Below, in pieces: positions 683 to 38,307 of a DNA stretch of 41,800 nucleotides (the first letter of the stretch is position 1; the number at the start of each line of letters is the position of its first letter). The notes beneath the pieces were generated by a model that was not told where the DNA came from, did not search any database, and saw only the letters and a program-made list of their open reading frames with translations. Origin of the DNA: Escherichia phage vB_EcoD_Teewinot; sequence record NC_073053.1. One strand, 5' to 3'. The position numbers and the translations under genes are program-made.

Positions 683-2067
683 TGCGTAACTATGCGGCAG
701 AACACCGCGCCCTCGAACGGGCGATCGCAAAGCGAAATCGACCGCCGCGACCGACACGCGTTGCGCAGGCCGTCCGCCTGTATCAGCCTGATTGCTTGCC
801 GCACCAGGTTGAACTACTGCGCGACACAAAGACTAAAATCCTCGGCCTGTGTTCCGGCTTCGGCGGTGGAAAGTCGTGGGTCGCTGCGCGTAAGGTCATC
901 CAGCTTTTAACCCTGAACCCCGGTCATGACGGCATCGTTACAGAACCGACTATTCCCCTCCTGGTTAAGATCATGTATCCGGAACTGGAGAAGGCATTCG
1001 ACGAGGCAGGCTTCCGGTGGAAGTTCAATAAGCAGGACAAGATCTATAACGTGCTTGTGAAAGGCAAATGGACCCGCGTTATCTGTGAGTCGATGGAGAA
1101 CTACACCCGCCTTATCGGGGTTAACGCCGCGTGGATTGTTGCCGATGAATTCGATACCACGAAGCAAGACGTTGCGCTGGCGGCGTATCACAAATTGCTC
1201 GGTCGTCTGCGTGCAGGCTTTGTACGCCAGTTCGTCATAGTGTCCACCCCGGAAGGCTACCGGGCGATGTACCAGATTTTCGAGGTGGAGAAGGATAGCC
1301 AAAAGCGCCTGATCCGGGCGAAGACCACCGACAACCACCATTTACCGGCAGACTTTATCGACACGCTGCGCAGTCAGTACCCGGCTAACCTTATTGACGC
1401 GTACCTGAACGGCCTGTTTGTCAACCTTACATCGGGCGCGGTATACAAGATGTTTAATCGCGAGGAGAACGCCAGCACCGAAGAAGTACAACCGGAAGAC
1501 ACGCTGATTATCGGTATGGACTTTAACGTCACGAAAATGGCGGCGGTCGTGTATGTAAGACGGCAGCGTACCACCGAGAACAAGGAGTTCCGCGACGAGA
1601 TTCACGCCGTGGATGAATTCGTGGACCTGTTTGATACCCCGGCTATGATTGAAGCGATCGAGGAGCGCTACCCCGATCATTGCGCTGCCGGTCGTGTTGT
1701 CGTGTACCCGGATAGCAGCGGCAAATCCCGCAAAACGGTTAACGCTTCGTCGTCCGATATCGCGCAACTGGAAGATGCGGGCTTCGAGGTGGAATACGAC
1801 AGCGTTAACCCGCCTGTGAAAGACCGATTGATCGCGATGAATACGATGATGTGCAACTCGAAGGGCGTGCGCCAGTATTTTGTCAACCTGGATAAATGCC
1901 CTACACTAGCGAAATGTCTGGAACAGCAGGTTTACGACCTGAAGAAAGGCGAGCCGGATAAAACCGCCGGTGTGGACCACATGAACGATGCCGCGGGTTA
2001 TCCAATTGCGCACCTGTTCCCTGTGATTCGTCCAATCGCCGTTGTTCCTACCGTAGATTTCTACTAA
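682..2067 (+). CDS. terL: terminase large subunit
   Basis: 461 aa; P-loop-like GLCSGFGGGKSW followed by acidic IVADEFD (Walker A/B-like); position directly before the portal gene. Confidence 0.85.
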   Translation: MRNYAAEHRALERAIAKRNRPPRPTRVAQAVRLYQPDCLPHQVELLRDTKTKILGLCSGFGGGKSWVAARKVIQLLTLNPGHDGIVTEPTIPLLVKIMYPELEKAFDEAGFRWKFNKQDKIYNVLVKGKWTRVICESMENYTRLIGVNAAWIVADEFDTTKQDVALAAYHKLLGRLRAGFVRQFVIVSTPEGYRAMYQIFEVEKDSQKRLIRAKTTDNHHLPADFIDTLRSQYPANLIDAYLNGLFVNLTSGAVYKMFNREENASTEEVQPEDTLIIGMDFNVTKMAAVVYVRRQRTTENKEFRDEIHAVDEFVDLFDTPAMIEAIEERYPDHCAAGRVVVYPDSSGKSRKTVNASSSDIAQLEDAGFEVEYDSVNPPVKDRLIAMNTMMCNSKGVRQYFVNLDKCPTLAKCLEQQVYDLKKGEPDKTAGVDHMNDAAGYPIAHLFPVIRPIAVVPTVDFY

Positions 2068-2078
2068 GGAAACCGACC

Positions 2079-5346: not shown

Positions 5347-5401
5347 TAGAAGCGTGAAGTCGAGCGGGTGGCCTGCTCTGCCACAATCCCAGGGGGATAG
5401 C

Positions 5402-6106
5402 ATGAAACTTACTAAAGCAGAATATGACGCGTTGCCGGAAGGTATGAAGGCGCTTTTTGTTGCCGATGGCGACGGGTATAAATCAACTTTCATGACCGCA
5501 GAAGAAGTACAGGCGGAAATCAAGGGTCTGAAAGAAAACAACGCGAAGCTGGTGAGCGAGAAGAAAGCAGAAGCCGAACGCCGCGCCGAAGCTGAGCGCC
5601 TTGCGAAAGAGAAAGAGGAAGCCGCCGCGCGCAAAAATGGCGACCTCGAAGCGATCGATAAGTCCTGGAAGGATAAGTTTGCGAAACACGAAGCAGATAC
5701 ATCGGGAAAAATCGAAGCCTACCGCAAGCAGATCCACGACCTAACCATCGGCAGCGCTGCCAAAGACCTGGCATCGAAGCTATTCGGTAAGAATGCGGGC
5801 ATCATGCAACGCCACGTAATGGACCGCCTGACGCTGGAAGACGGCGAAGATGGCAGCTTGAAAGTGCGTGTCTTGCAGGATGGCAAACCGTCCGCGCTGA
5901 CTATGGAAGAGCTTGAAAAAGAGTTCCGTAATAACGCCGATTTTGCATCCGTCCTGGCTGGCACGCCAGCCGGTGGCGCGCCTAGCAAACCGACGCAGGT
6001 TGTCGAAGATGTGAAGTCGAAAATCACTATGGGCCACAGCTTCGGTATCACTGACCTTACGAAACAGGCAGGTGAAATCATCGCTAAGATGGGCGACGAC
6101 GAGTAA
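5402..6106 (+). CDS. scaffolding protein (putative)
   Basis: ATG 5402 preceded by AGGGGGA; 234 aa, charged and helical (KEKEEAAARK-type coiled coil), immediately upstream of the major capsid gene. The track ORF start at 5060 is an upstream extension through the intergenic region. Confidence 0.6.
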   Translation: MKLTKAEYDALPEGMKALFVADGDGYKSTFMTAEEVQAEIKGLKENNAKLVSEKKAEAERRAEAERLAKEKEEAAARKNGDLEAIDKSWKDKFAKHEADTSGKIEAYRKQIHDLTIGSAAKDLASKLFGKNAGIMQRHVMDRLTLEDGEDGSLKVRVLQDGKPSALTMEELEKEFRNNADFASVLAGTPAGGAPSKPTQVVEDVKSKITMGHSFGITDLTKQAGEIIAKMGDDE

Positions 6107-6203: not shown

Positions 6204-7304
6204 ATGACTTTAACAGTGTTCCAGCGTAAACTCGTTACCGCGGTTACGCAAATGATCCCCGACAACCTGAACGTTTTCAACGCCGCCGCCAATGGCGCTG
6301 TTGTTCTCGGTACTGGTGAAGTGCTGAAGGATGTTATTGAGAAAATGTCCGTAGGCTTGATCGCCAACCTCGTTACCGACCGTAACGCCTACGCCCCTGT
6401 CGGTACTCCGGCAACCGCTAAAGTGCTGGCGCGTATGCTGACCAACTCCGTTAACCTATCCGCGAAAGTGGGTCCGGTAGCGATCACTAAGGCTATGATG
6501 GCTAAGATCGAAACCAACGTTAACAGCGTTGCGGCTGAGATTGCGGCGCAGGCCACTCAAGCGATTATGCTGCACTACCTGAAAGCGGGTATCGGTGCGG
6601 GTAAAGCGGCGATCGAAAGCAACGAAGCGGCAAAATACACCCAACCGGCGCGCGTTGACGGCGTTGGCGGTCGTACCTTCCCGACCCTGGCAGACTTCCC
6701 GCTGGCGGCTTCTAAGTTCGGCGATCAGGCGTCTTTGATTAAGTCCTGGTTTATGGACGGCGTTACCTGGGCAAACTTCATCGCGTACCAGGCACTCCCT
6801 TCCGCTGAACAGGTATTCGCAATTGGCGATCTCCAGGTAATGGGTGATGGCCTGGGCCGTCGTTTCATTATCTCCGATGCCGCTGCCGATGCTATGGGCA
6901 CGGGTAACATGCTGGGTCTGGTCCCTGGCGCGGTTGCCGTTACCACCAACGGCCTCGATATGCTGGCGCAGGAGAAAGGCGGTAACGAGAACATCGAACG
7001 CTGGTGGCAGGGTGAGTTCGACTTCAACGTGGCTGTTAAAGGCTACCGTCTGAAGGCGTCCGCTCGTACCCCGATCGAAGGTGTGCGCTCGTTCAAACTG
7101 GACGATATTACCACTTCCGCTAACTGGGAATTGGATCAGGGCCAGGTAGACAACGCACCGGCAACCGTTCAGGATGTTGGCGCGGTGGGTGATGTCGATA
7201 CTAAAGGTCGTCGTAAGACCCAGGCCGCACAGGCAGTGCCTACCCGTCACATCAAGGAAACCGCTGGCGTACTGGTTACGCTGACGGCGACCACAGCGTC
7301 TTAA
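6204..7304 (+). CDS. major capsid protein
   Basis: 366 aa ORF after the scaffold gene with AAGGA RBS, followed by a strong terminator; position and size typical of an HK97-fold capsid protein. Confidence 0.8.
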   Translation: MTLTVFQRKLVTAVTQMIPDNLNVFNAAANGAVVLGTGEVLKDVIEKMSVGLIANLVTDRNAYAPVGTPATAKVLARMLTNSVNLSAKVGPVAITKAMMAKIETNVNSVAAEIAAQATQAIMLHYLKAGIGAGKAAIESNEAAKYTQPARVDGVGGRTFPTLADFPLAASKFGDQASLIKSWFMDGVTWANFIAYQALPSAEQVFAIGDLQVMGDGLGRRFIISDAAADAMGTGNMLGLVPGAVAVTTNGLDMLAQEKGGNENIERWWQGEFDFNVAVKGYRLKASARTPIEGVRSFKLDDITTSANWELDQGQVDNAPATVQDVGAVGDVDTKGRRKTQAAQAVPTRHIKETAGVLVTLTATTAS

Positions 7305-7322: not shown

Positions 7323-7349
7323 GGGCGGGCTTATGCCCGCCTTTTTTTA
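7323..7349 (+). terminator. rho-independent terminator after the capsid gene
   Basis: GGGCGGGC-ttat-GCCCGCC followed by TTTTTTT. Confidence 0.7.
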
Positions 7350-7363
7350 TAGGAGTGAATAAG

Positions 7364-7864
7364 ATGTATGGCGACCCGCAAACCTTTGTTGTTTATGCCG
7401 CTGCGCGAGGCGTTGAAATTACGCAGAGCGACGCAACGCGACACCTTACCATTGTTAATGACTTCCTTAACGGCATCGACTGGATCGGCGAACAAGCGGA
7501 CCCGACCGGAATTGACGCATGGCCCCGCGTCAACTACCCGTCAGACGGTAAGCCGGTGCAAAACACGCTTACTGAAGATTTGGCAGTAGTTCCCGCTGGG
7601 CAGATTGTAGACTTCGCGTCAATCCCTGTTGCCGTTGAGCAAGCCGTTTACCGGCTGGCTATGCTGGTGGCGGACGATGTTGATATTTCTCCGATCGGGG
7701 ACGGTAAGGAGACTATCCGCGAAACTGTAGGCCCGATCACGATGGAGTATGACCCCGCGACGATTGGTAGCGGGGTGTCGTTCCCGTGGTGGGATGGCTT
7801 GTTAGGCCACTGGGTTGATTCAGGCGGCAACGCCGCAGGCAATTTCGACGTATTCAGGGGGTAA
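7364..7864 (+). CDS. hypothetical head/connector protein
   Basis: ATG 7364 preceded by AGGAG (7351-7355); 166 aa; lies between capsid and tail genes. Confidence 0.5.
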   Translation: MYGDPQTFVVYAAARGVEITQSDATRHLTIVNDFLNGIDWIGEQADPTGIDAWPRVNYPSDGKPVQNTLTEDLAVVPAGQIVDFASIPVAVEQAVYRLAMLVADDVDISPIGDGKETIRETVGPITMEYDPATIGSGVSFPWWDGLLGHWVDSGGNAAGNFDVFRG

Positions 7865-7865
7865 T

Positions 7866-8084
7866 ATGAATCCTGCATTACTCGCGGCTATTATCGCCGC
7901 AAATACTAAACGCCGACAGGAACCGGAACCACCGGTACCAGCGCCAGAACCGGAACCACCGGTACCAGCGCCAGAACCGGAACCACCGGTACCAGCGCCA
8001 GAACCGGAACCACCGGTACCAGCGCCAGAACCGGAACCACCGGAACCAGCGCCAGAACCGGAACCACCGGTACAGGAGGGCTAA
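7866..8084 (+). CDS. small proline/glutamate repeat protein
   Basis: ATG 7866 preceded by AGGGGG; 72 aa, N-terminal hydrophobic segment followed by about five copies of PEPEPPVPA encoded by a 27-bp tandem DNA repeat. Confidence 0.5.
   Translation: MNPALLAAIIAANTKRRQEPEPPVPAPEPEPPVPAPEPEPPVPAPEPEPPVPAPEPEPPEPAPEPEPPVQEG
7920..8076 (+). repeat. 27-bp tandem repeat (about 5.8 copies) inside a coding region
   Basis: Unit GAACCGGAACCACCGGTACCAGCGCCA repeated head-to-tail from 7920; four exact copies, a fifth with one substitution, and a partial sixth. Confidence 0.85.
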
Positions 8085-8088
8085 GAAG

Positions 8089-8442
8089 ATGGCGGGCTTT
8101 AATTACGCAGGATTAAAGCGGAAAGTGAATCCGCTGATTAAAAAATTCGGCATGACCGTTACGGTTACGCGTCCGGGGTCGGTTGACCGTGTAGACGGCG
8201 AAGAAGTGGTCATCCCACCGACCTCGTTTGACGTCATCGGTCTTCGCGAGGAGTACAAGCCGAGCGAGATCGACGGAACGCGTATCGTTGCCGGTGATGT
8301 GAAGTTTTTATGTCGGGCGGTTGAGCAATTGCGGGTGGGCGACCTGGTTAACCTGAACGGTGCTGACTACCGTGTCGTCAATCCTAACCCACTGCAACCG
8401 GCTGGCACTACCATGCTGTTTCAACTACAGCTAAGGGGCTAA
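8089..8442 (+). CDS. hypothetical head-tail connector protein
   Basis: 117 aa ORF with AAGAAG upstream, in the connector region between head and tail genes. Confidence 0.45.
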   Translation: MAGFNYAGLKRKVNPLIKKFGMTVTVTRPGSVDRVDGEEVVIPPTSFDVIGLREEYKPSEIDGTRIVAGDVKFLCRAVEQLRVGDLVNLNGADYRVVNPNPLQPAGTTMLFQLQLRG

Positions 8443-8443
8443 C

Positions 8444-9037
8444 GTGGCTGAAGTCTACTCATTCGCCGCCACTATTGCTACGTGGGTGGACAAGACGAAG
8501 GAGAACAACGACAAGGCGGTGCGGGCGTACGGTATGCAAATACTCGGACGCCTGGTCGAGATCTCCCCAGTGGGCGACCCCCGCCGGTGGAAAATTAACA
8601 GGGCTTACGCGCTCGCCCGCCAGCACGCAAACAAGGTGAACGCCGCACAGCGTCGCAAGAATGGCGGCAAACTGAAGCGCGGGCAGAAAAAGCACGCCAG
8701 CGTGCTGGTATCATTCAAGACTAAAAACGGCAACGTCACGTTCCGCCAGCGTGGCTGGGCTGCGAAGAATTACACCGGCGGACGCTTCCGGGGAAACTGG
8801 CAGGTTACGTTCGACCGCCCGGCTGTTGGCGCTATTGACCGCGTGGACAAGGCCGGAACGGCAACATTAGCCGCTGGGCGTGAAGTGTTAGCGCACTATG
8901 ATTCGAGTGAATACGGGTCGATCTGGTTTACTAACAACGTGCCATACGCGCAGCGACTTGAGTATGGCTGGAGTAAACAAGCGCCAGCGGGGATTGTTCG
9001 CGTCGTAGCGGCAGAAATTAATTCGAAGGTGAAATAA
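8444..9037 (+). CDS. putative head-tail joining protein (HK97 gp10-like, from memory)
   Basis: GTG start after AAGGGGC; 197 aa; C-terminal NNVPYAQRLEYGW resembles the conserved end of HK97 gp10-family proteins as I recall it. Unverified. Confidence 0.4.
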   Translation: MAEVYSFAATIATWVDKTKENNDKAVRAYGMQILGRLVEISPVGDPRRWKINRAYALARQHANKVNAAQRRKNGGKLKRGQKKHASVLVSFKTKNGNVTFRQRGWAAKNYTGGRFRGNWQVTFDRPAVGAIDRVDKAGTATLAAGREVLAHYDSSEYGSIWFTNNVPYAQRLEYGWSKQAPAGIVRVVAAEINSKVK

Positions 9038-9459
9038 TGAGCAATACCGCAATCCGCAAAGCGCTTAACAGCGTGGTTGAAGAGTTATCGGCAAGCCTGA
9101 GCACAAGCCAGCGTCCGATTAGGGTTAACTGGGAGAACGTGAGCGGCGACCACGCAAACGGCAGCGGTGTCTACCTGGAACCGTACCTGCTTCCGGCCCC
9201 TACCCAGTTTGTGGGCTTCCAGCAGAAGGGCCGTATCTATGCCGGTGTGTATCAGGTTGCCGTGGTGTTTCCCGCAGGAACTGGAACACAGTACGCGAGC
9301 GAACTGGCGGACGCCATCGCTACGTCTGATAAGTGGCTGGAGGTGAAGATTTCCGGTGCGTCATTTCAGCTTCAGGACGCGCCATACACCAGTTCAGTGA
9401 TTGAAGACGTTGATCGCGCCCGCATCGTGGTTACAGTGCCCTATTCCTGTTGTGCCTGA
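9037..9459 (+). CDS. hypothetical tail-completion/connector protein
   Basis: 140 aa ORF, start overlaps the previous stop (ATGA); position just upstream of the major tail protein gene. Confidence 0.45.
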   Translation: MSNTAIRKALNSVVEELSASLSTSQRPIRVNWENVSGDHANGSGVYLEPYLLPAPTQFVGFQQKGRIYAGVYQVAVVFPAGTGTQYASELADAIATSDKWLEVKISGASFQLQDAPYTSSVIEDVDRARIVVTVPYSCCA

Positions 9460-9520: not shown

Positions 9521-10246
9521 ATGGGTTATCAACTCCCCAACGGGTCCAGCGTCCAGATTGGGTCCGTACTGGGCAACGGCATCGCTGTTACGGCAGCTAC
9601 CAACGCCGCCGCGTCGATCTCCGACCTTACGCAAGGTTGCGTAATTACCTGCGCGGAGTCTCACGGTCTGGTTGTTGGCGACGTTGTTATGTTCACTAAA
9701 ACCCCGTGGGTCCGTGCGCTGAACCGCGCGTTCATCGTTGGTAAAGTATCGGGGAACGACGTTACACTGGCGCGCTTCGACACCGAAGACGTCACAAAAT
9801 ACCCGACCGGCGCTTTCAGCGTAGGCACTCCGGGCGAAGTGGTGAAGGTGTCGAGCTTTATCGACTTCCCTTTCATTACTAACGTTGCCGTGTCTGGTGG
9901 CGACCAGCAGACGACTACATTCCAGCCGTTGCAGGTGAACACCGCAATCAGTCTGAACACCACGAAAAACCCGTTGGTTCAGACTTACACCTTCACCCAC
10001 GACGAAGAAGACCCGATCCGCCCAATCCTGGAAGACCTGGACGACACACAGAAAACCACTGTGATTAAGTTCACTAACCCGGCAGCGGCAAGCGGCAAAG
10101 GTGAGATCCGTATTTACCCGGCTAAGGTATCTTTCCAGAAGATTCCGTCCGCTGAAGTAAACAACGTGGAAACAGTACAAGCCACTCTGACCATGCAGTC
10201 TGATATGGTTATCTACCGTAAGGATCTTGTCGAGGCATTGTCTTGA
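9521..10246 (+). CDS. major tail protein (putative)
   Basis: 241 aa ORF with AGGAGCG RBS, followed by a strong terminator and then the G/GT chaperone and tape measure genes. Confidence 0.6.
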   Translation: MGYQLPNGSSVQIGSVLGNGIAVTAATNAAASISDLTQGCVITCAESHGLVVGDVVMFTKTPWVRALNRAFIVGKVSGNDVTLARFDTEDVTKYPTGAFSVGTPGEVVKVSSFIDFPFITNVAVSGGDQQTTTFQPLQVNTAISLNTTKNPLVQTYTFTHDEEDPIRPILEDLDDTQKTTVIKFTNPAAASGKGEIRIYPAKVSFQKIPSAEVNNVETVQATLTMQSDMVIYRKDLVEALS

Positions 10247-10678: not shown

Positions 10679-10992
10679 TTGAGGCGGCGCGACGCTTTTA
10701 TGGCCCGCCGCCACCCTCCGAAGATTTAGCCGCAAGTTTATGGGGTGCGGCCCCCGAAGATGTTTGTCCGCCTGTTGCGCTATGGCCCGACAACGCGAAG
10801 GTAGTCGCAGTCTTCACAGATTGCTCCACGCAATGGCGCACCGGTTTTGGTGGCGCATACGGCATCGACTACGGCGTGCTGGAGTGGTTATTTAAGATGC
10901 ACGGTATCGAAAACGAGCAGCGCGCGTTTAAAGATATCAAGCTAATGGAGCGAATCGCGCTTGATGAGATGGCGCAGCAGAACCCCGCATAA
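10316..10992 (+). CDS. tail assembly chaperone GT-like fusion made by -1 programmed frameshift
   Basis: The -1 frame is open with no stop from 10675 to TAA 10990-10992 (hand-translated: LIEAARRFYGPPPPSEDLAASLWGAAPEDVCPPVALWPDNAKVVAVFTDCSTQWRTGFGGAYGIDYGVLEWLFKMHGIENEQRAFKDIKLMERIALDEMAQQNPA). It has no ATG of its own. Slippery heptamer A AAA AAC lies at 10669-10675. Confidence 0.55.
10669..10675 (+). promoter_or_regulatory. -1 ribosomal frameshift slippery heptamer (A AAA AAC)
   Basis: X XXY YYZ heptamer in the last codons of the G-like ORF; the downstream -1 frame is open for about 105 codons. Confidence 0.5.
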
Positions 10993-11135
10993 TGAAGCGG
11001 GACAGGCGGGACGTCCCGTTTTGTCCCGCCTCTGTAAAACTGCATATCTACTCACTTCCACTGCATAAACTCAAAACGGGACAAGCGGGACGTCCCGCTT
11101 TGTCCCGCCCTGTAAATGTGCATACCTATGCAGTT
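10993..11135. repeat. pair of 30-bp GGGAC palindromes with TGCATA-containing spacers
   Basis: Two near-identical imperfect palindromes CGGGACAAGCGGGACGTCCCGCTTTGTCCCGCC around 11003-11040 and 11084-11120, each centred on GGGACGTCCC, separated by CTGTAAA(N)TGCATA-type repeats. Confidence 0.7.
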
Positions 11136-11139
11136 TTAT

Positions 11140-11313
11140 TGCATAAAGTAAGCGGGACAAAAAGCGGGACAAACAAGGGGCGGGACAAAGCGGGACAGCA
11201 CCCCGTCCCCGCCAGTGCTGCCGCGGTTTTCAGCCGATCGGGACAGCGGGACAGCACCCCAGTCTTTCAGACTAGACGGGGGTCAATGGCCCCCCTCGTC
11301 TGAGACTGAATAA
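11140..11313. repeat. 174-bp GCGGGACA-array element, copy A
   Basis: Four tandem GCGGGACA units spaced about one helical turn apart, a variable centre, two more GGGACAG units, then a long imperfect hairpin (AGACGGGGG...CCCCCCTCGTCT). Near-identical copy at 37996-38169. Confidence 0.8.
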
Positions 11314-31190: not shown

Positions 31191-31973
31191 TTAACGGCGG
31201 CGACGTTTACGTGGCGCTTCGTCTTCGTCGTCGTCCTCATCTTCGTCATCGCGTGGCTTACGACGTTTGCGAGGTTTTTCATCTTCCTCATCGTCGTCGT
31301 CATCGCGGCGCTTGGATTTCTTGGACTTGCGCGGCTTGTCATCTTCATCATCGTCATCACGACGTTTTGACTTTTTGGACTTGCGCGGTGCTTCGTCTTC
31401 GTCGTCGTTGTCCAGGTCTTCATCGGAGCAAGAAGACCCGCCACCTCCGAAGGCTTCGCCGTCTTCACGGAATCGCAGACCCAGCAAGCCAGCCCCGAGA
31501 CCCTTGCCGTTGGTATTGTTCCATGCCCAAATATCAAGGGACACGTTGCAATAACAACCGGAGTAGATCTCCTGGCCTTCAATCTCGTCGCCGTCGATGG
31601 TCAGACCTTGTTCAGTCTGCTTCTCGCCGAGTGACGTTTGAATGATCGGCTGTTTGAACGATTTGGCGTTGATGTACAACATGCCTTCGAATTCTTCGGT
31701 TACTTCGTCGCGCTCGTCACCGTCGCGAACTGCGCATTCCTTAGAATCCTGGGCGTAGTGGCGGTCCATCCACTTATCAGCATTCTTCTCGGATTTCAGC
31801 TTGTCGGTGAGCACTGCGCGCGCTGCCGCTTCCACTTTGTCCACCTGCGGATCTTCTTTATCAAGGAGAATCACTGCACGGTATGCCGGTTTTTGTCCAT
31901 CCTGTTTAGGGGTATCACGTTCCCAAATTTTCAGGAAGCATACGCGCACATTTTTCAGGTTGACTTTAGCCAT
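31191..31973 (-). CDS. ssDNA-binding protein (T7 gp2.5-like/DUF2815-like, from memory) with charged repeat tail
   Basis: 260 aa from ATG 31973 (GAGGA RBS), beginning MAKVNLKNVRVCFLKIWE; the C-terminal third is a DDDEDDKPRKSKKSKRR-type repeat ending in RKRRRR; sits between polymerase and Cas4-like nuclease genes. Confidence 0.5.
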   Translation of the reverse strand: MAKVNLKNVRVCFLKIWERDTPKQDGQKPAYRAVILLDKEDPQVDKVEAAARAVLTDKLKSEKNADKWMDRHYAQDSKECAVRDGDERDEVTEEFEGMLYINAKSFKQPIIQTSLGEKQTEQGLTIDGDEIEGQEIYSGCYCNVSLDIWAWNNTNGKGLGAGLLGLRFREDGEAFGGGGSSCSDEDLDNDDEDEAPRKSKKSKRRDDDDEDDKPRKSKKSKRRDDDDDEEDEKPRKRRKPRDDEDEDDDEDEAPRKRRRR

Positions 31974-32063
31974 TTTCCAATTCCTCATTTTCACATGTAT
32001 CGGGGTTATTGTGAGCCACCCCGTCCGGCTTGGTTGCTAATTTACTTGGTTGCGCTTAAGCGG

Positions 32064-35383: not shown

Positions 35384-37648
35384 ATGAACTTAATTAAATT
35401 CGCTGTAACACGACCCGCTAAAAAAGGCGAAAAAGCCAGGGCGGAAAACTTCCAGATGACCACCGATGAGTTTTTCGAATTTATTAATGATGCGAAAGAA
35501 ATATCCTCGGTGCATATCAACAAGACGGAAGATAAAGCGGAGTATGCGCGCCGCAAGCGTAAGGCTGATGGTATTGTGGCTTATACCCGTGACGGCTTAC
35601 GCCGCAAGACCAGTGCCGTGGACCGCTCGATCCTGTTCTTCGATATCGACCGTACCGACACCCGCACCCTGCGCCGCTGCCGTAAGGCTTTCATCGACGC
35701 GGGGCTGGAGCACGTATTTCACACCACAACCGGCGACCGCCACCCGCTGAAAGGCGGCACGCGTTGCGCTCGATTCCTGGTACTCACGGACAAGCCTGTA
35801 CCGGCTGAAGACCTGGGCCGTGTCCAGTATGCGCTATTACACCAACTGGGTCTGTCAGATGTGGACTTCGACGATTGCACGAAAGACACAAACCGCCTGA
35901 TGTACCTGCCACACCAGCAGTCTGTCGTTAAGTGCCACTACGGCAAGCGCGCCCGCGTCCGTCGTCTGCTCCGCCTGGCTGACAAGCTGGGAGTCGAGAA
36001 AGAGGAAGTACGCCGCGAACTGACCCAGGGCGATGATGGTGTGGCGGACGGTATTCTGGATTGGTGCTTCCAGGCGGGATTCGAACCGCTGTCGTCTGGT
36101 CGTGGTTATGAAGTGCCATGCCCGAACGAACACCTGCACAGCGGCGAAGGGTCCACCGCTATCTTGGTTAAGGATGGCGAGATCCGTTTCAAGTGTATGC
36201 ACACCGGCAACGAGTGTTGCTCGGAGCTGAACAGACACCAGCACCTGGCGCTACGTCTTATCGGGATCCCGGACCACCTGAACGTCGAGCCACACAACAT
36301 GTCCCGTAAGCAAATCGCCGCCATCCTCCCCGGACTGGACGACGAGGAAGTGGAATCGTGCTATGAACATATCGTTGATGCGGTCGGAGACGGCGACGAG
36401 TACGGCGTGTGTACTGATGCAGACCTGGACAACGAGCCGGTCGCACTGTTCAGTAAGCACGACCCGATCATCGAAGGCCTGGTCAACTTCAAATCGACCT
36501 GGTATCTCGCCGGTGAGTCGAACATCGGTAAATCGTTCTACGTGCTGGGGCAAATGGGTGCGGTTGCCGCGGGGATTCCGTTCGGCGGTGCGAAGGTCGT
36601 CCAGTCCCATTGCTTCTATTTCGACGCGGAAGGTGGCGAAGCCTCCAACCAGCGTAAGGAAGCATTGCAGATCAAATACGAGCACGACCTCGACAAGCTG
36701 CACATTATCGATCTGCAATCACGCGGCTGGGATATCACCAGCAAATCCGGCTTGCGTGAAGTTATCAGCTTCATCAACCGCACCGCTAACGGCGAACCGG
36801 TTGGCCTGGTGGCGTTCGACTCACTCAACCAGACGGTTGCGCTGCGGTCCGCCGATGCTAAACCGTTCGACGAGAACAACGCCAGCGATATGGGTGAAGT
36901 GGTCAAAGCGCTGAAGGCCATCGCGGAAAATACAGGCGGCAGTGCTGGCGTCATCCACCACCCGGCGAAGGGTGCAAACGGCAGCAGATCCCCCCGCGGG
37001 TCCGGCGCGCTGCATGGTGCTGTAGATTCCGCGTTCTTCCTGGAGCAACCGGACGACAATCAGCCCGGACAACTTAACCTGTATCACGAGAAGGCACGTA
37101 ACGGCATCAAGCAAGCGCCGCGCGGCTTCGTCCTGCTCAAGTGCAAGGTTAAGGTGGATCTCCGCAAGTCCGAGGCGTTCGAGGCGCACCAGTCCACCAG
37201 CACCGGGCCAGACTTCGGCGACGTGGTTGCCGGATGGGACGTCAAGCCGATTGCCTCCACGCCACGCGACGAGACTCTCTACCTCGTACCGGTCGCCCTG
37301 GCACCGTTCGCTATAGAACAGGCGAAGGCGGCTGGCAAGGCCGCGGTTAAGGACGAGAATGCCGCAGGACCGCGCAACGAAAAAGAGAAAGTGCTTTATG
37401 CGGCACTGGAAAAACTGATGGAAGATAACCCGGACCATACCGGATTCAGCAAATCGGCAATTGTCCGCCAGGCGGGATTGGCAAAAGGTGGAACATCTAC
37501 GAAGGCAATAGACGATATGGTTGAGCGCGGAGTGTTAGGTTTTTATACCGATCCGCACACCGGGGCCATCTATGGGTCGTCGAATATAGTCATCAAAACG
37601 AATATACCCATCACGCTTTCTGCGACCGATGACGACCTGAAAGATTAA
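35384..37648 (+). CDS. primase-helicase (AEP-type primase domain plus P-loop ATPase)
   Basis: 754 aa; N-terminal SILFFDIDRTD (hhhDhD primase-polymerase motif) and DDCTKDTNRLMYLP, a Cys/His zinc-binding segment, then Walker A GESNIGKS. Confidence 0.7.
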   Translation: MNLIKFAVTRPAKKGEKARAENFQMTTDEFFEFINDAKEISSVHINKTEDKAEYARRKRKADGIVAYTRDGLRRKTSAVDRSILFFDIDRTDTRTLRRCRKAFIDAGLEHVFHTTTGDRHPLKGGTRCARFLVLTDKPVPAEDLGRVQYALLHQLGLSDVDFDDCTKDTNRLMYLPHQQSVVKCHYGKRARVRRLLRLADKLGVEKEEVRRELTQGDDGVADGILDWCFQAGFEPLSSGRGYEVPCPNEHLHSGEGSTAILVKDGEIRFKCMHTGNECCSELNRHQHLALRLIGIPDHLNVEPHNMSRKQIAAILPGLDDEEVESCYEHIVDAVGDGDEYGVCTDADLDNEPVALFSKHDPIIEGLVNFKSTWYLAGESNIGKSFYVLGQMGAVAAGIPFGGAKVVQSHCFYFDAEGGEASNQRKEALQIKYEHDLDKLHIIDLQSRGWDITSKSGLREVISFINRTANGEPVGLVAFDSLNQTVALRSADAKPFDENNASDMGEVVKALKAIAENTGGSAGVIHHPAKGANGSRSPRGSGALHGAVDSAFFLEQPDDNQPGQLNLYHEKARNGIKQAPRGFVLLKCKVKVDLRKSEAFEAHQSTSTGPDFGDVVAGWDVKPIASTPRDETLYLVPVALAPFAIEQAKAAGKAAVKDENAAGPRNEKEKVLYAALEKLMEDNPDHTGFSKSAIVRQAGLAKGGTSTKAIDDMVERGVLGFYTDPHTGAIYGSSNIVIKTNIPITLSATDDDLKD

Positions 37649-37960
37649 ATTTTGCGCGCATTGGGAATTCCCATATCGCTAAAGATTAAATTTTGCGCGC
37701 ATTGGTTGCCATTTTGGGAATTCCCATATCGCTAAAGATTAAATTTTGCGCGCATTGGTTGCCGATATGGGAATTCCCATATCGCTAAAGATTAAATTTT
37801 GCGCGCATTGGTTGCCATTTTGGGAATTCCCATATCGCTAAAGATTAAATTTTGCGCGTATTGGTTGCCATTTTGGGAATTCCCATATCGCTAAAGATTA
37901 AATTTTGCGCGTATTGGTTGCCATTTTGGGTGTTTTTAACTGGTCGTATTGGTTGCCGTG
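37640..37960. repeat. iteron array, about six tandem 53-bp repeats (candidate origin of replication)
   Basis: Unit AAAGATTAAATTTTGCGCGCATTGGTTGCCATTTTGGGAATTCCCATATCGCT at 37681, 37734, 37787, 37840, a 41-bp first copy at 37640 (12-bp deletion) and a degenerate sixth; each has the palindrome TGGGAATTCCCA, extended to GATATGGGAATTCCCATATC in the third copy. Starts in the last codons of the primase-helicase gene. Confidence 0.75.
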
Positions 37961-37995
37961 TAGGGTGATTATTATGAATAGTTATGCAATAAAAC

Positions 37996-38169
37996 TGCAT
38001 AAAGTAAGCGGGACAAAAAGCGGGACAAACAAGGGGCGGGACAAAGCGGGACAGCACCCCCGTCCCGCCCCGGATGGCGCGGCTTTCAGAGGAGCGGGAC
38101 AGCGGGACAGCACCCCAGTCTTTCAGACTAGACGGGGGTCAGTGGCCCCCCTCGTCTGAGACTGAATAA
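37996..38169. repeat. 174-bp GCGGGACA-array element, copy B
   Basis: Same length as copy A (11140-11313); identical over the first 60-odd bp and the last 70-odd bp except one A/G difference, with a diverged roughly 40-bp centre. Confidence 0.8.
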
Positions 38170-38307
38170 AATCCCAATACACGGCAGCATAGTGAAAATT
38201 GCGTCGAGGGTAGAACTCGGCAACCAATGCGGGTTGGATAATGGAGAGTGGGAAATGCAGCCACCGCGGATAGCGATCAACTTTTTCATGCGCATGATTA
38301 ATATTGG

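Follow-up and report, generated by a model that had tools for sequence, protein, structure and literature searches.

A 27-bp tandem array in a small Dhillonvirus gene between the head-tail adaptor and head closure genes: evidence for recent in-frame amplification

A small ORF between two neck genes of Escherichia phage vB_EcoD_Teewinot was found to contain a 27-bp tandem array. Comparison with related phages indicates that the array arose recently, when 27 nt of ancestral sequence were amplified in frame, the enlarged tail roughly doubling the length of the protein. The explanation that we favor, and regard as reasonably probable, is that the ORF is a real Dhillonvirus gene in which a 27-bp unit was recently amplified in a near-neutral manner, and that its product is a virion-exposed accessory protein in which an anchor helix is followed by an acidic tail that remains free. 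The whole stretch of DNA analyzed (hereafter the window; 41,800 nucleotides, NC_073053.1) is a nearly complete Dhillonvirus genome (HK578-like E. coli siphophage), and its first 25 kb aligns with approximately 150 phage records, of which Envy and Sloth were the best at 95.2% identity.

The small ORF and its tandem array

The small ORF extends on the plus strand from an ATG at 7866 to a TAA at 8082..8084 (72 codons), and its product consists of MNPALLAAIIAANTKRRQ, the repeats, and PVQEG. Tandem Repeats Finder detected the array at 7920..8073 (+) with a period of 27, 5.7 copies, 98% matches, and a score of 301, and the array encodes (EPEPPVPAP)n. Four copies of the unit GAACCGGAACCACCGGTACCAGCGCCA, starting at 7920, 7947, 7974, and 8001, are exact. 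The fifth unit (8028) differs at a single base, A for T at 8044 (+), which gives GAA (Glu) instead of GTA (Val), and the array closes with a 19-nt partial sixth unit; the five or six near-perfect repeats described in the initial annotation were therefore borne out. The in-frame translation of the array is (EPEPPVPAP)4-EPEPPEPAP-EPEPPVQEG. The 72-aa protein contains 29 Pro and 14 Glu residues (60% Pro plus Glu) and has a pI of 4.05. No match to the repeat unit was obtained in any of 100 dinucleotide-preserving shuffles. A 53-aa antisense ORF with VPVLALVPV repeats at 7906..8067 (−) was rejected as a gene because almost all of it lies inside the array, which is absent from relatives; it is a by-product of the stop-free repeat.

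Neck gene context and translation signals

The coordinates of the ORF and its position between connector genes were confirmed. PHROG profiles placed the scaffold gene at 5375..6106, the major head protein gene at 6204..7304, the head-tail adaptor gene Ad1 at 7355..7864 (+; phrog_477, 1.7e-37), the head closure gene Hc1 at 8089..8442 (+; phrog_161, 2.2e-31), Neck1 at 8444..9037, the tail terminator gene at 9037..9459, and the major tail protein gene at 9521..10246. The ENA contig L042, the Logan contig L043, and phage EE09 are the closest relatives at this locus, their flanks being 98% identical to those of the window, and the Ad1 proteins of the window and EE09 show 100% amino acid identity over residues 2-169. 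In addition, the gap between the major capsid gene and Ad1 contains, at 7323..7342, a strong hairpin that resembles a terminator (GGGCGGGC-TTAT-GCCCGCC, then a T run) and is probably an attenuator setting the ratio of capsid to neck protein synthesis.

The TAA stop codon of Ad1 precedes the ATG of the small ORF by 1 nt. Sequence reading revealed a Shine-Dalgarno-like AGGGGG at 7856..7861 (+), located within the end of Ad1 and 4 nt upstream of this ATG; the element is AGGGGG or CGGGGG in close relatives and AGAGG in L015. The Shine-Dalgarno sequence of Hc1, GGAGGG, was likewise read within the end of the small ORF at 8075..8080 (+), 8 nt upstream of the ATG at 8089, and is GGAGGG in L042 and L043 and GGAGAG in EE09. 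In relatives, the small ORF begins 1-2 nt past the Ad1 stop and has a 14-nt overlap with the start of Hc1, whereas in the window it stops 4 nt before the Hc1 ATG. The TAA at 8082..8084 (+), which is GAA in L042 and L043 and another sense codon in the remaining relatives, deletes the last five residues (EDGGL), and such a truncating codon was found in only one of 25 distinct variants, namely that of the window. In a moron test, neither a promoter nor a terminator of its own was found near the small ORF, the hairpin at 7323..7342 being the sole strong one. The RNA fold z-score of the region 7840..8110 was −4.0, which reflects repeated CCGG...CCGG palindromes, and the centroid was almost unstructured.

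Two other coding arrangements were rejected. A programmed +1 frameshift joining Ad1 to the small ORF was discarded because the frame relation between them is not conserved, the ATG lying 1 nt past the Ad1 stop in most phages and 2 nt past it in L015. An N-terminally extended Hc1 reading through the array was discarded since the Hc1 frame contains no ATG, GTG, or TTG from the TGA at 7867 to 8089. An arrangement of the latter kind appears in the annotation of ZCEC10, where an upstream-extended Hc1, starting at a CTG and running through the tract in another frame, takes the place of the small ORF. The small ORF is unannotated in several GenBank records, including L044 (ZCEC10), L045 (Zar3M), L047 (Shigella phage 1b), and bov11C2/bov16_1.

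Origin of the array

The corresponding sequence of L042 is ...CGA CCG GAA CCG GAA CCG GAA [CCA GCG CCA GAA CCG GAA CCA CCG GTA] CAG GAG GGC GAA GAA GAT GGC GGG CTT TAA, in which the bracketed 27 nt is the repeat unit, present once. When copy number was compared among isolates, as had been proposed in the initial annotation, the unit was single-copy in every relative examined (5.7 copies in the window versus 1 in L042, L012, L005, and L013). The distance from the small-ORF ATG to the Hc1 ATG is 223 nt in the window and 112 nt in L042, and the additional 111 nt are accounted for by four extra units and one codon. The window, L042, and L043 share the same ...EPEPPVQEG ending. On codon alignment, the final 1.6 copies of the window array correspond to the ancestral sequence, and the GAA at 8044 represents the ancestral left flank (CCG GAA CCA GCG CCA) and not a later mutation. 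The perfect identity of the four copies indicates that the expansion is recent. The change from GAA to TAA at 8082..8084 needs only a single G-to-T substitution.

No phage record in INPHARED covered at least 80% of the small ORF, and a junction-specific 24-mer was absent from IMG/VR, JGI metagenomes, and GTDB genomes. A unit-spanning 25-mer was present in three IMG/VR contigs, once per contig, and the exact 72-aa protein had no match in any gene index. The lack of a repeat junction in INPHARED, IMG/VR, JGI metagenomes, and GTDB suggests that the expansion is private to the window genome and recent. Because the array is private to one genome, its copy number comes from a single assembly.

A Dhillonvirus-specific gene family

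The small ORF is an expanded member of phrog_11158, a 38-position profile: hmmscan aligned residues 1-33 of the window protein to profile positions 1-30 (2.9e-11), and its N-terminal motif, MNPALLAAIIAANTK, fits the profile. Residues 1-17 are identical in EE09, L042, and L043. The family includes HK578_010, EE09_26, Bas84_0011, K19_010, and JLBYU60_12, and at every Dhillonvirus locus examined the slot between Ad1 and Hc1 encodes the pattern MNPALLAAIIAANTK(R/Q)(R/Q/P)-PE-rich tract-(E/D)(D/N)GGL. The small-ORF region was matched in 137 phage records. A family-profile search of a collection of 5.8 billion proteins yielded 36 clusters of 34-44 aa, all of which are labelled "hypothetical" except two metagenome entries labelled "TAR DNA-binding protein". 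When the 72-aa protein itself was used as a homologue query, just four matches at E <= 0.01 were obtained among 8000 candidates scored. No paralogue of the N-terminal helix was found elsewhere in the window, and no Ad1 relatives were found in GTDB genomes.

Among 20 close relatives, codons 1-15 have three variable sites at first, two at second, and nine at third codon positions, and the synonymous pairs include CTC/CTG, GCT/GCG, ATT/ATA, GCA/GCC, and AAT/AAC. In a divergent lineage (L015 and L041; Ad1 72-76% identical), the hydrophobic helix is retained by conservative swaps (MNPAIIVAMLAALATK). The distance between the ATG codons of the small ORF and Hc1 takes eight values (94, 100, 103, 106, 112, 118, 157, and 223 nt), all of which equal 1 mod 3, so that the frame is kept. 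No ORF was present between Ad1 and Hc1 in any of five outgroup phages that share this neck module and have an Ad1-Hc1 gap of 0-3 nt (Serratia Smarc2, Pectobacterium Ymer, and Klebsiella KLB16, HBM00, and JVSB2). The third-position bias, the conserved frame, the conserved slot, and the absence from outgroups together indicate, at the level of sequence comparison, that the small ORF is a real, Dhillonvirus-specific gene whose N-terminus is under purifying selection. The conservation of DGGL is not independent evidence, because its codons overlap those of Hc1 (ATG-GCG-GGC-TTT-AA, encoding MAGFN).

The window protein departs from the usual size of phrog_11158, from its single short PE tract, and from its ...(E/D)(D/N)GGL end. 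Since the flanks are orthologous, as are the two ends of the tract, these departures mark a derived variant of the family and do not exclude the window protein from it. Plain family members, that is, those lacking an Ig domain, are 34-44 aa long apart from one 56-aa form, compared with 72 aa in the window; at the loci examined, the range outside the 56-aa form was 35-43 aa.

Variability of the tail and Ig-bearing orthologues

The expanded unit of the tract differs between lineages: the 56-aa protein of the bov phages has (PE)14, ZCEC10 has (PV)3, and Kenya-K19 has a 15-bp duplication (PEQPE), and Zar3M carries a PVPP variant of the tract. The expectation that the repeats are prone to copy-number change agrees with the in-frame length classes given above and with the lability of the tract among relatives, in which the homologous stretch is coding; the converse case, a repeat lying in noncoding DNA in relatives, was not encountered. 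The alignments indicate that the tail is an indel hotspot which evolves almost freely in both length and sequence.

A profile search of 1.84 billion representatives identified P0038 (122 aa), which occupies the same slot on the Dhillonvirus contig L050 (Ad1, 5499..5999; P0038 gene, 6001..6369; Hc1, 6356..6709). P0038 has MNPALLVAIIAANTKRPPEP at its N-terminus and EPEPEEDENGGL at its C-terminus, with an Ig-like domain between them. This domain matched Pfam Ig_3 (33.2 bits against a cutoff of 30), phrog_2973 "Hoc-like head decoration" (5.4e-20), and the major tail protein family phrog_158 (3.1e-14). An AF2 model of P0038 computed without an alignment (pLDDT 47.9) was too poor for a fold search, so that the Ig assignment derives from the Pfam and PHROG profiles. 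A homologue search with P0038 gave no match besides itself.

Phage SM_A2 (L051) encodes a 67%-identical Ig domain followed by approximately 17 PE repeats, with the N-terminus and gene slot of the family; its small gene ends right before Hc1 (TAA-C-ATG). Because the SM_A2 orthologue also stops before Hc1, the overlapping end of the small gene is dispensable. Besides SM_A2, the nearest matches of the Ig domain were lambdoid major tail proteins, a Hoc-like decoration protein, fibritin/whisker proteins, and a tail fiber protein, and tblastn of the domain against these families gave 38-43% identity. Ig-bearing forms are rare (two genomes). Ig-like domains of phages are typically found on exposed surfaces of virion proteins (PMC5292684). 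The location of the Ig domain between the helix and the PE tract in these orthologues indicates that the tract is not a stalk holding a payload.

In the SM_A2 record (PP920552.1), the Ig-bearing orthologue of approximately 147 aa at 1501..2075 is unannotated and a minus-strand ORF is annotated instead. The same record contains '(GAGCCA)n GAGCCGAAGGGGGAGTAACATGGCGGGATTTAACTACG' twice in tandem, and a misassembly at the PE repeat is possible.

The initial annotation had suggested a head decoration or a connector linker. The former gains indirect support from the two same-slot orthologues with a Hoc/gpV-like Ig domain, whereas the latter is disfavored because nothing is conserved past the tract. 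The DGGL end is set by the overlap with Hc1 and is lost in both the window and SM_A2, and the tract is therefore better described as a free C-terminal tail than as a linker.

Predicted structure and virion data

AF2 prediction using a five-sequence alignment gave a hydrophobic α-helix at residues 3-14 (PALLAAIIAANT; codons at 7872..7907, +), the sole strongly conserved part of the family, and otherwise no regular secondary structure (mean pLDDT 83, pTM 0.23). According to this model, the 72-aa protein is not globular. The helix is followed by K/R residues and then by the acidic Pro/Glu-rich tail. Alternating Pro-Glu sequences are probably extended and polyproline-II-like, as in segments of TonB and procyclin. 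If a rise of approximately 3.1 Å per residue for polyproline-II applies, the tail could reach approximately 17 nm (54 residues), compared with approximately 6 nm in relatives. With the array, the protein has six Pro-Pro motifs instead of one, and its translation could be slower when EF-P is lacking.

The hydrophobic run comprises approximately 9-12 residues, and the best 19-residue window scored +17.9 kcal/mol on the Hessa scale. A transmembrane or lipoprotein anchor was rejected on the basis of this value and of the lack of Cys, a lipobox, and a signal peptide. No Pfam family matched the window protein at E <= 10, and no sequence match was found in the PDB.

The only virion proteome found was that of EE09, examined by LC-MS/MS (PMC10673088 Table 1). 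As regards the virion proteomics that had been proposed as a check, this table does not list the 35-aa orthologue, and it does list Ad1, the terminator, and other neck proteins, mostly with one or two peptides each (PMC10673088). The nondetection is weak evidence, because such a small protein would yield one hydrophobic tryptic peptide and one acidic peptide without K/R and is thus poorly detectable. A Bil-system preprint on the Dhillonvirus SECphi4 contains gel-band MS only, and the small protein is not mentioned in it.

Proposed role and alternative explanations

In the favored explanation, the small gene would be translated along with Ad1 and Hc1 via stop and start codons that lie close together or overlap. 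The 27-bp unit, single-copy in the closest relatives, would have gained four copies, presumably by replication slippage or unequal recombination, with the tail of the window phage growing from approximately 20 to approximately 54 residues, and a G-to-T change would afterwards have converted the next GAA codon to TAA. The expansion was most likely neutral or nearly so, because the length and sequence of the tail are barely constrained. The N-terminal helix would act as a docking peptide, either onto the neck or head of the virion or onto an assembly partner synthesized in the same amounts, and production of the protein would presumably keep pace with that of the 12-mer neck proteins. The tail would jut into the solvent as a bristle that is polyanionic, prone to the polyproline-II conformation, and not critical in its length, and in two lineages the same exposed position would hold an Ig-like domain, as in surface decoration proteins. 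The Ig-bearing orthologues and the variability of the tail favor, without proving, a solvent-exposed accessory role in the virion. The points against a virion anchor are the small size of a 12-residue helix for this purpose and the EE09 table without the orthologue. A bolder version, which we consider improbable, is that a minimal virion display module arose in Dhillonvirus between once-adjacent neck genes. Its helix of approximately 12 residues would attach to the particle payloads as varied as a short acidic tail, a PE/PV brush of 54 residues, and an Ig domain, and the slippage-prone tract would retune surface charge or adhesion, e.g., mucus or surface binding or colloidal behavior, in which case the 27-bp expansion would be adaptive and not the result of drift.

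The protein might instead be an assembly-phase factor that leaves the virion, such as a chaperone or timer of head completion, whose helix binds Ad1, Hc1, or the portal transiently and whose acidic tail mimics DNA or keeps the complex in solution. We regard this as rather unlikely. The translational coupling to neck genes, the possible resemblance of the acidic disordered tail to some assembly factors, and the missing orthologue in the EE09 list are in keeping with such a role. However, the weakness of that MS result, explained above, applies here as well, and the relatives of the Ig domain are all exposed virion proteins, so that its presence would be unexpected on a transient intracellular chaperone. 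The same Ig domain bears on the idea that the ORF is a mere translated spacer coupling Ad1 and Hc1, its peptide being functionless and the length of its tract drifting. The tight juxtaposition or overlap of stop and start codons at both ends of the ORF, the almost unconstrained tail, the outgroups that manage without the ORF, and the explanation of DGGL conservation by the Hc1 MAGFN codons would all suit a spacer. Nevertheless, the first 15 codons are under purifying selection at the protein level (third-position bias and hydrophobic-only swaps), a folded Ig domain was gained in frame and retained in two lineages at 67% identity, and the direct juxtaposition of Ad1 and Hc1 works in the outgroups, so that a spacer is unneeded. 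The spacer explanation is accordingly judged to be quite improbable.

A low probability, similar to that of the spacer, is given to the explanation that the array is real and its copy number, perhaps together with the TAA, reflects an error of assembly or sequencing or a variant carried by a minority of the sequenced stock. Tandem copy number is often misjudged by short-read assemblers, not one repeat junction was found in any other genome or contig searched, and the SM_A2 record has its own suspicious duplicated stretch at the PE repeat. On the other hand, no assembler could build the array unless the junction GTA|CCA were present one or more times, 154 bp fits within an ordinary read span, and the array is in frame and ends in ancestral sequence, as a genuine duplication would. 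It is very improbable that the product is a small membrane protein, i.e., a moron-like or superinfection-exclusion factor with a hydrophobic N-terminal anchor and a TonB-like proline-rich rod. The succession of a hydrophobic stretch, K/R, and a Pro/Glu segment superficially resembles the N-terminal part of TonB, but the short hydrophobic run with its Hessa value does not make a transmembrane helix, and neither a lipobox nor a signal peptide is present. Furthermore, the gene is universal in the genus, lies within the late operon, and has no promoter or terminator of its own that could be found, unlike morons.

Comparison with known systems

The window protein shares its slot, N-terminus, and PE-rich tail with phrog_11158 and differs in its length of 72 aa, its unique 27-bp array, and the loss of EDGGL. 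[quoted passage not shown] The architecture follows a similar logic, namely, a helical N-terminal binder, a proline-rich segment, and, in two orthologues only, an exposed Ig-like domain. However, the pb10 anchor is a five-helix domain of approximately 77 aa and its linker joins two domains, whereas the window protein has a single 12-residue helix, a free C-terminal tail, and no Ig domain; no sequence similarity to pb10 was detectable with Pfam or the PDB. The likeness to Hoc-like decoration proteins, lambdoid gpV, and T4-type whiskers is through the Ig domains of P0038 and SM_A2 only, the window protein having none. In its presumed mode of working (an anchor plus an exposed part), the window protein is most like small decoration proteins of the Hoc/pb10 type, yet it has neither an Ig domain nor a multi-helix anchor.

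The likeness to the proline-rich region of TonB is compositional only, since the window protein has no N-terminal transmembrane anchor. The likeness to the EP repeats of procyclin (PARP) is also compositional only: the window protein did not match Pfam PF05887 (procyclin), and relatives scored 15.3 and 27.3 bits against a cutoff of 100. With coding VNTRs, the window array shares identical head-to-tail units, lengths in multiples of 3 nt, a single-copy ancestor, and independent expansions in sister lineages, and by between-genome comparison it qualifies as a coding VNTR. It cannot be called a contingency locus, as there is no evidence of on/off switching or selected phase variation.

The array is a tidy case of a coding low-complexity tract in a phage late operon that appears to have grown by in-frame slippage. 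Repeat expansion itself is ordinary; it is more useful that a "hypothetical" family can be described as a modular, probably exposed add-on of the neck gene cluster. The family appears to be genus-specific and modular at the head-tail junction cluster, and tolerates very different C-terminal payloads. The annotation is corrected as well, since several GenBank records lack the small ORF or call it wrongly, the Ig-bearing version of SM_A2 being among those affected. If the helix is truly a virion anchor, it would be among the smallest natural attachment tags and could serve in phage display on Dhillonviruses, a group to which BASEL phages (e.g., KarlBarth and JohannBuxtorf_Bas84) and phages under study for therapy belong. 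Current understanding would be altered only if the location of the protein were shown.

Other repeats and variable sites in the window

A 53-bp tandem array (5.1 copies, 96% matches, Tandem Repeats Finder score 505) is present at 37661..37930, just downstream of the primase/helicase ORF (35384..37648). It looks noncoding and contains the palindrome GGGAATTCCC. In most of the top-listed Dhillonvirus matches, only approximately 90-120 bp of the record is aligned (approximately 290 bp in SM_S24), which indicates that the copy number varies. This array could be an iteron- or origin-like element.

Clusters of GCGGGAC(A) with ACTGCATAAA boxes and a GC-rich hairpin (AGACGGGGGTCA(A/G)TGGCCCCCCTCGTCT) occur twice, at 10990..11310, between the tail chaperone and tape measure genes, and at 37990..38170, after the 53-bp array. 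Approximately 175 bp is shared with the chaperone-tape measure spacer of L042 (91%). These clusters are candidates for repeated modules of regulation or termination.

A second coding tandem repeat of the window genome was found at 31283..31408 (54 bp, 2.3 copies) in the ORF 31191..31994 (−), where it encodes a repeated acidic/basic tail (DDDDEDDKPRKSKKSKRR-like). At approximately 5157, in the gap between the head-morphogenesis and scaffold genes, the window lacks approximately 630 bp present in L042 (6651..7287) and L043. This insert carries a minus-strand gene with an Nmad5 domain, and the content of the slot varies among relatives.
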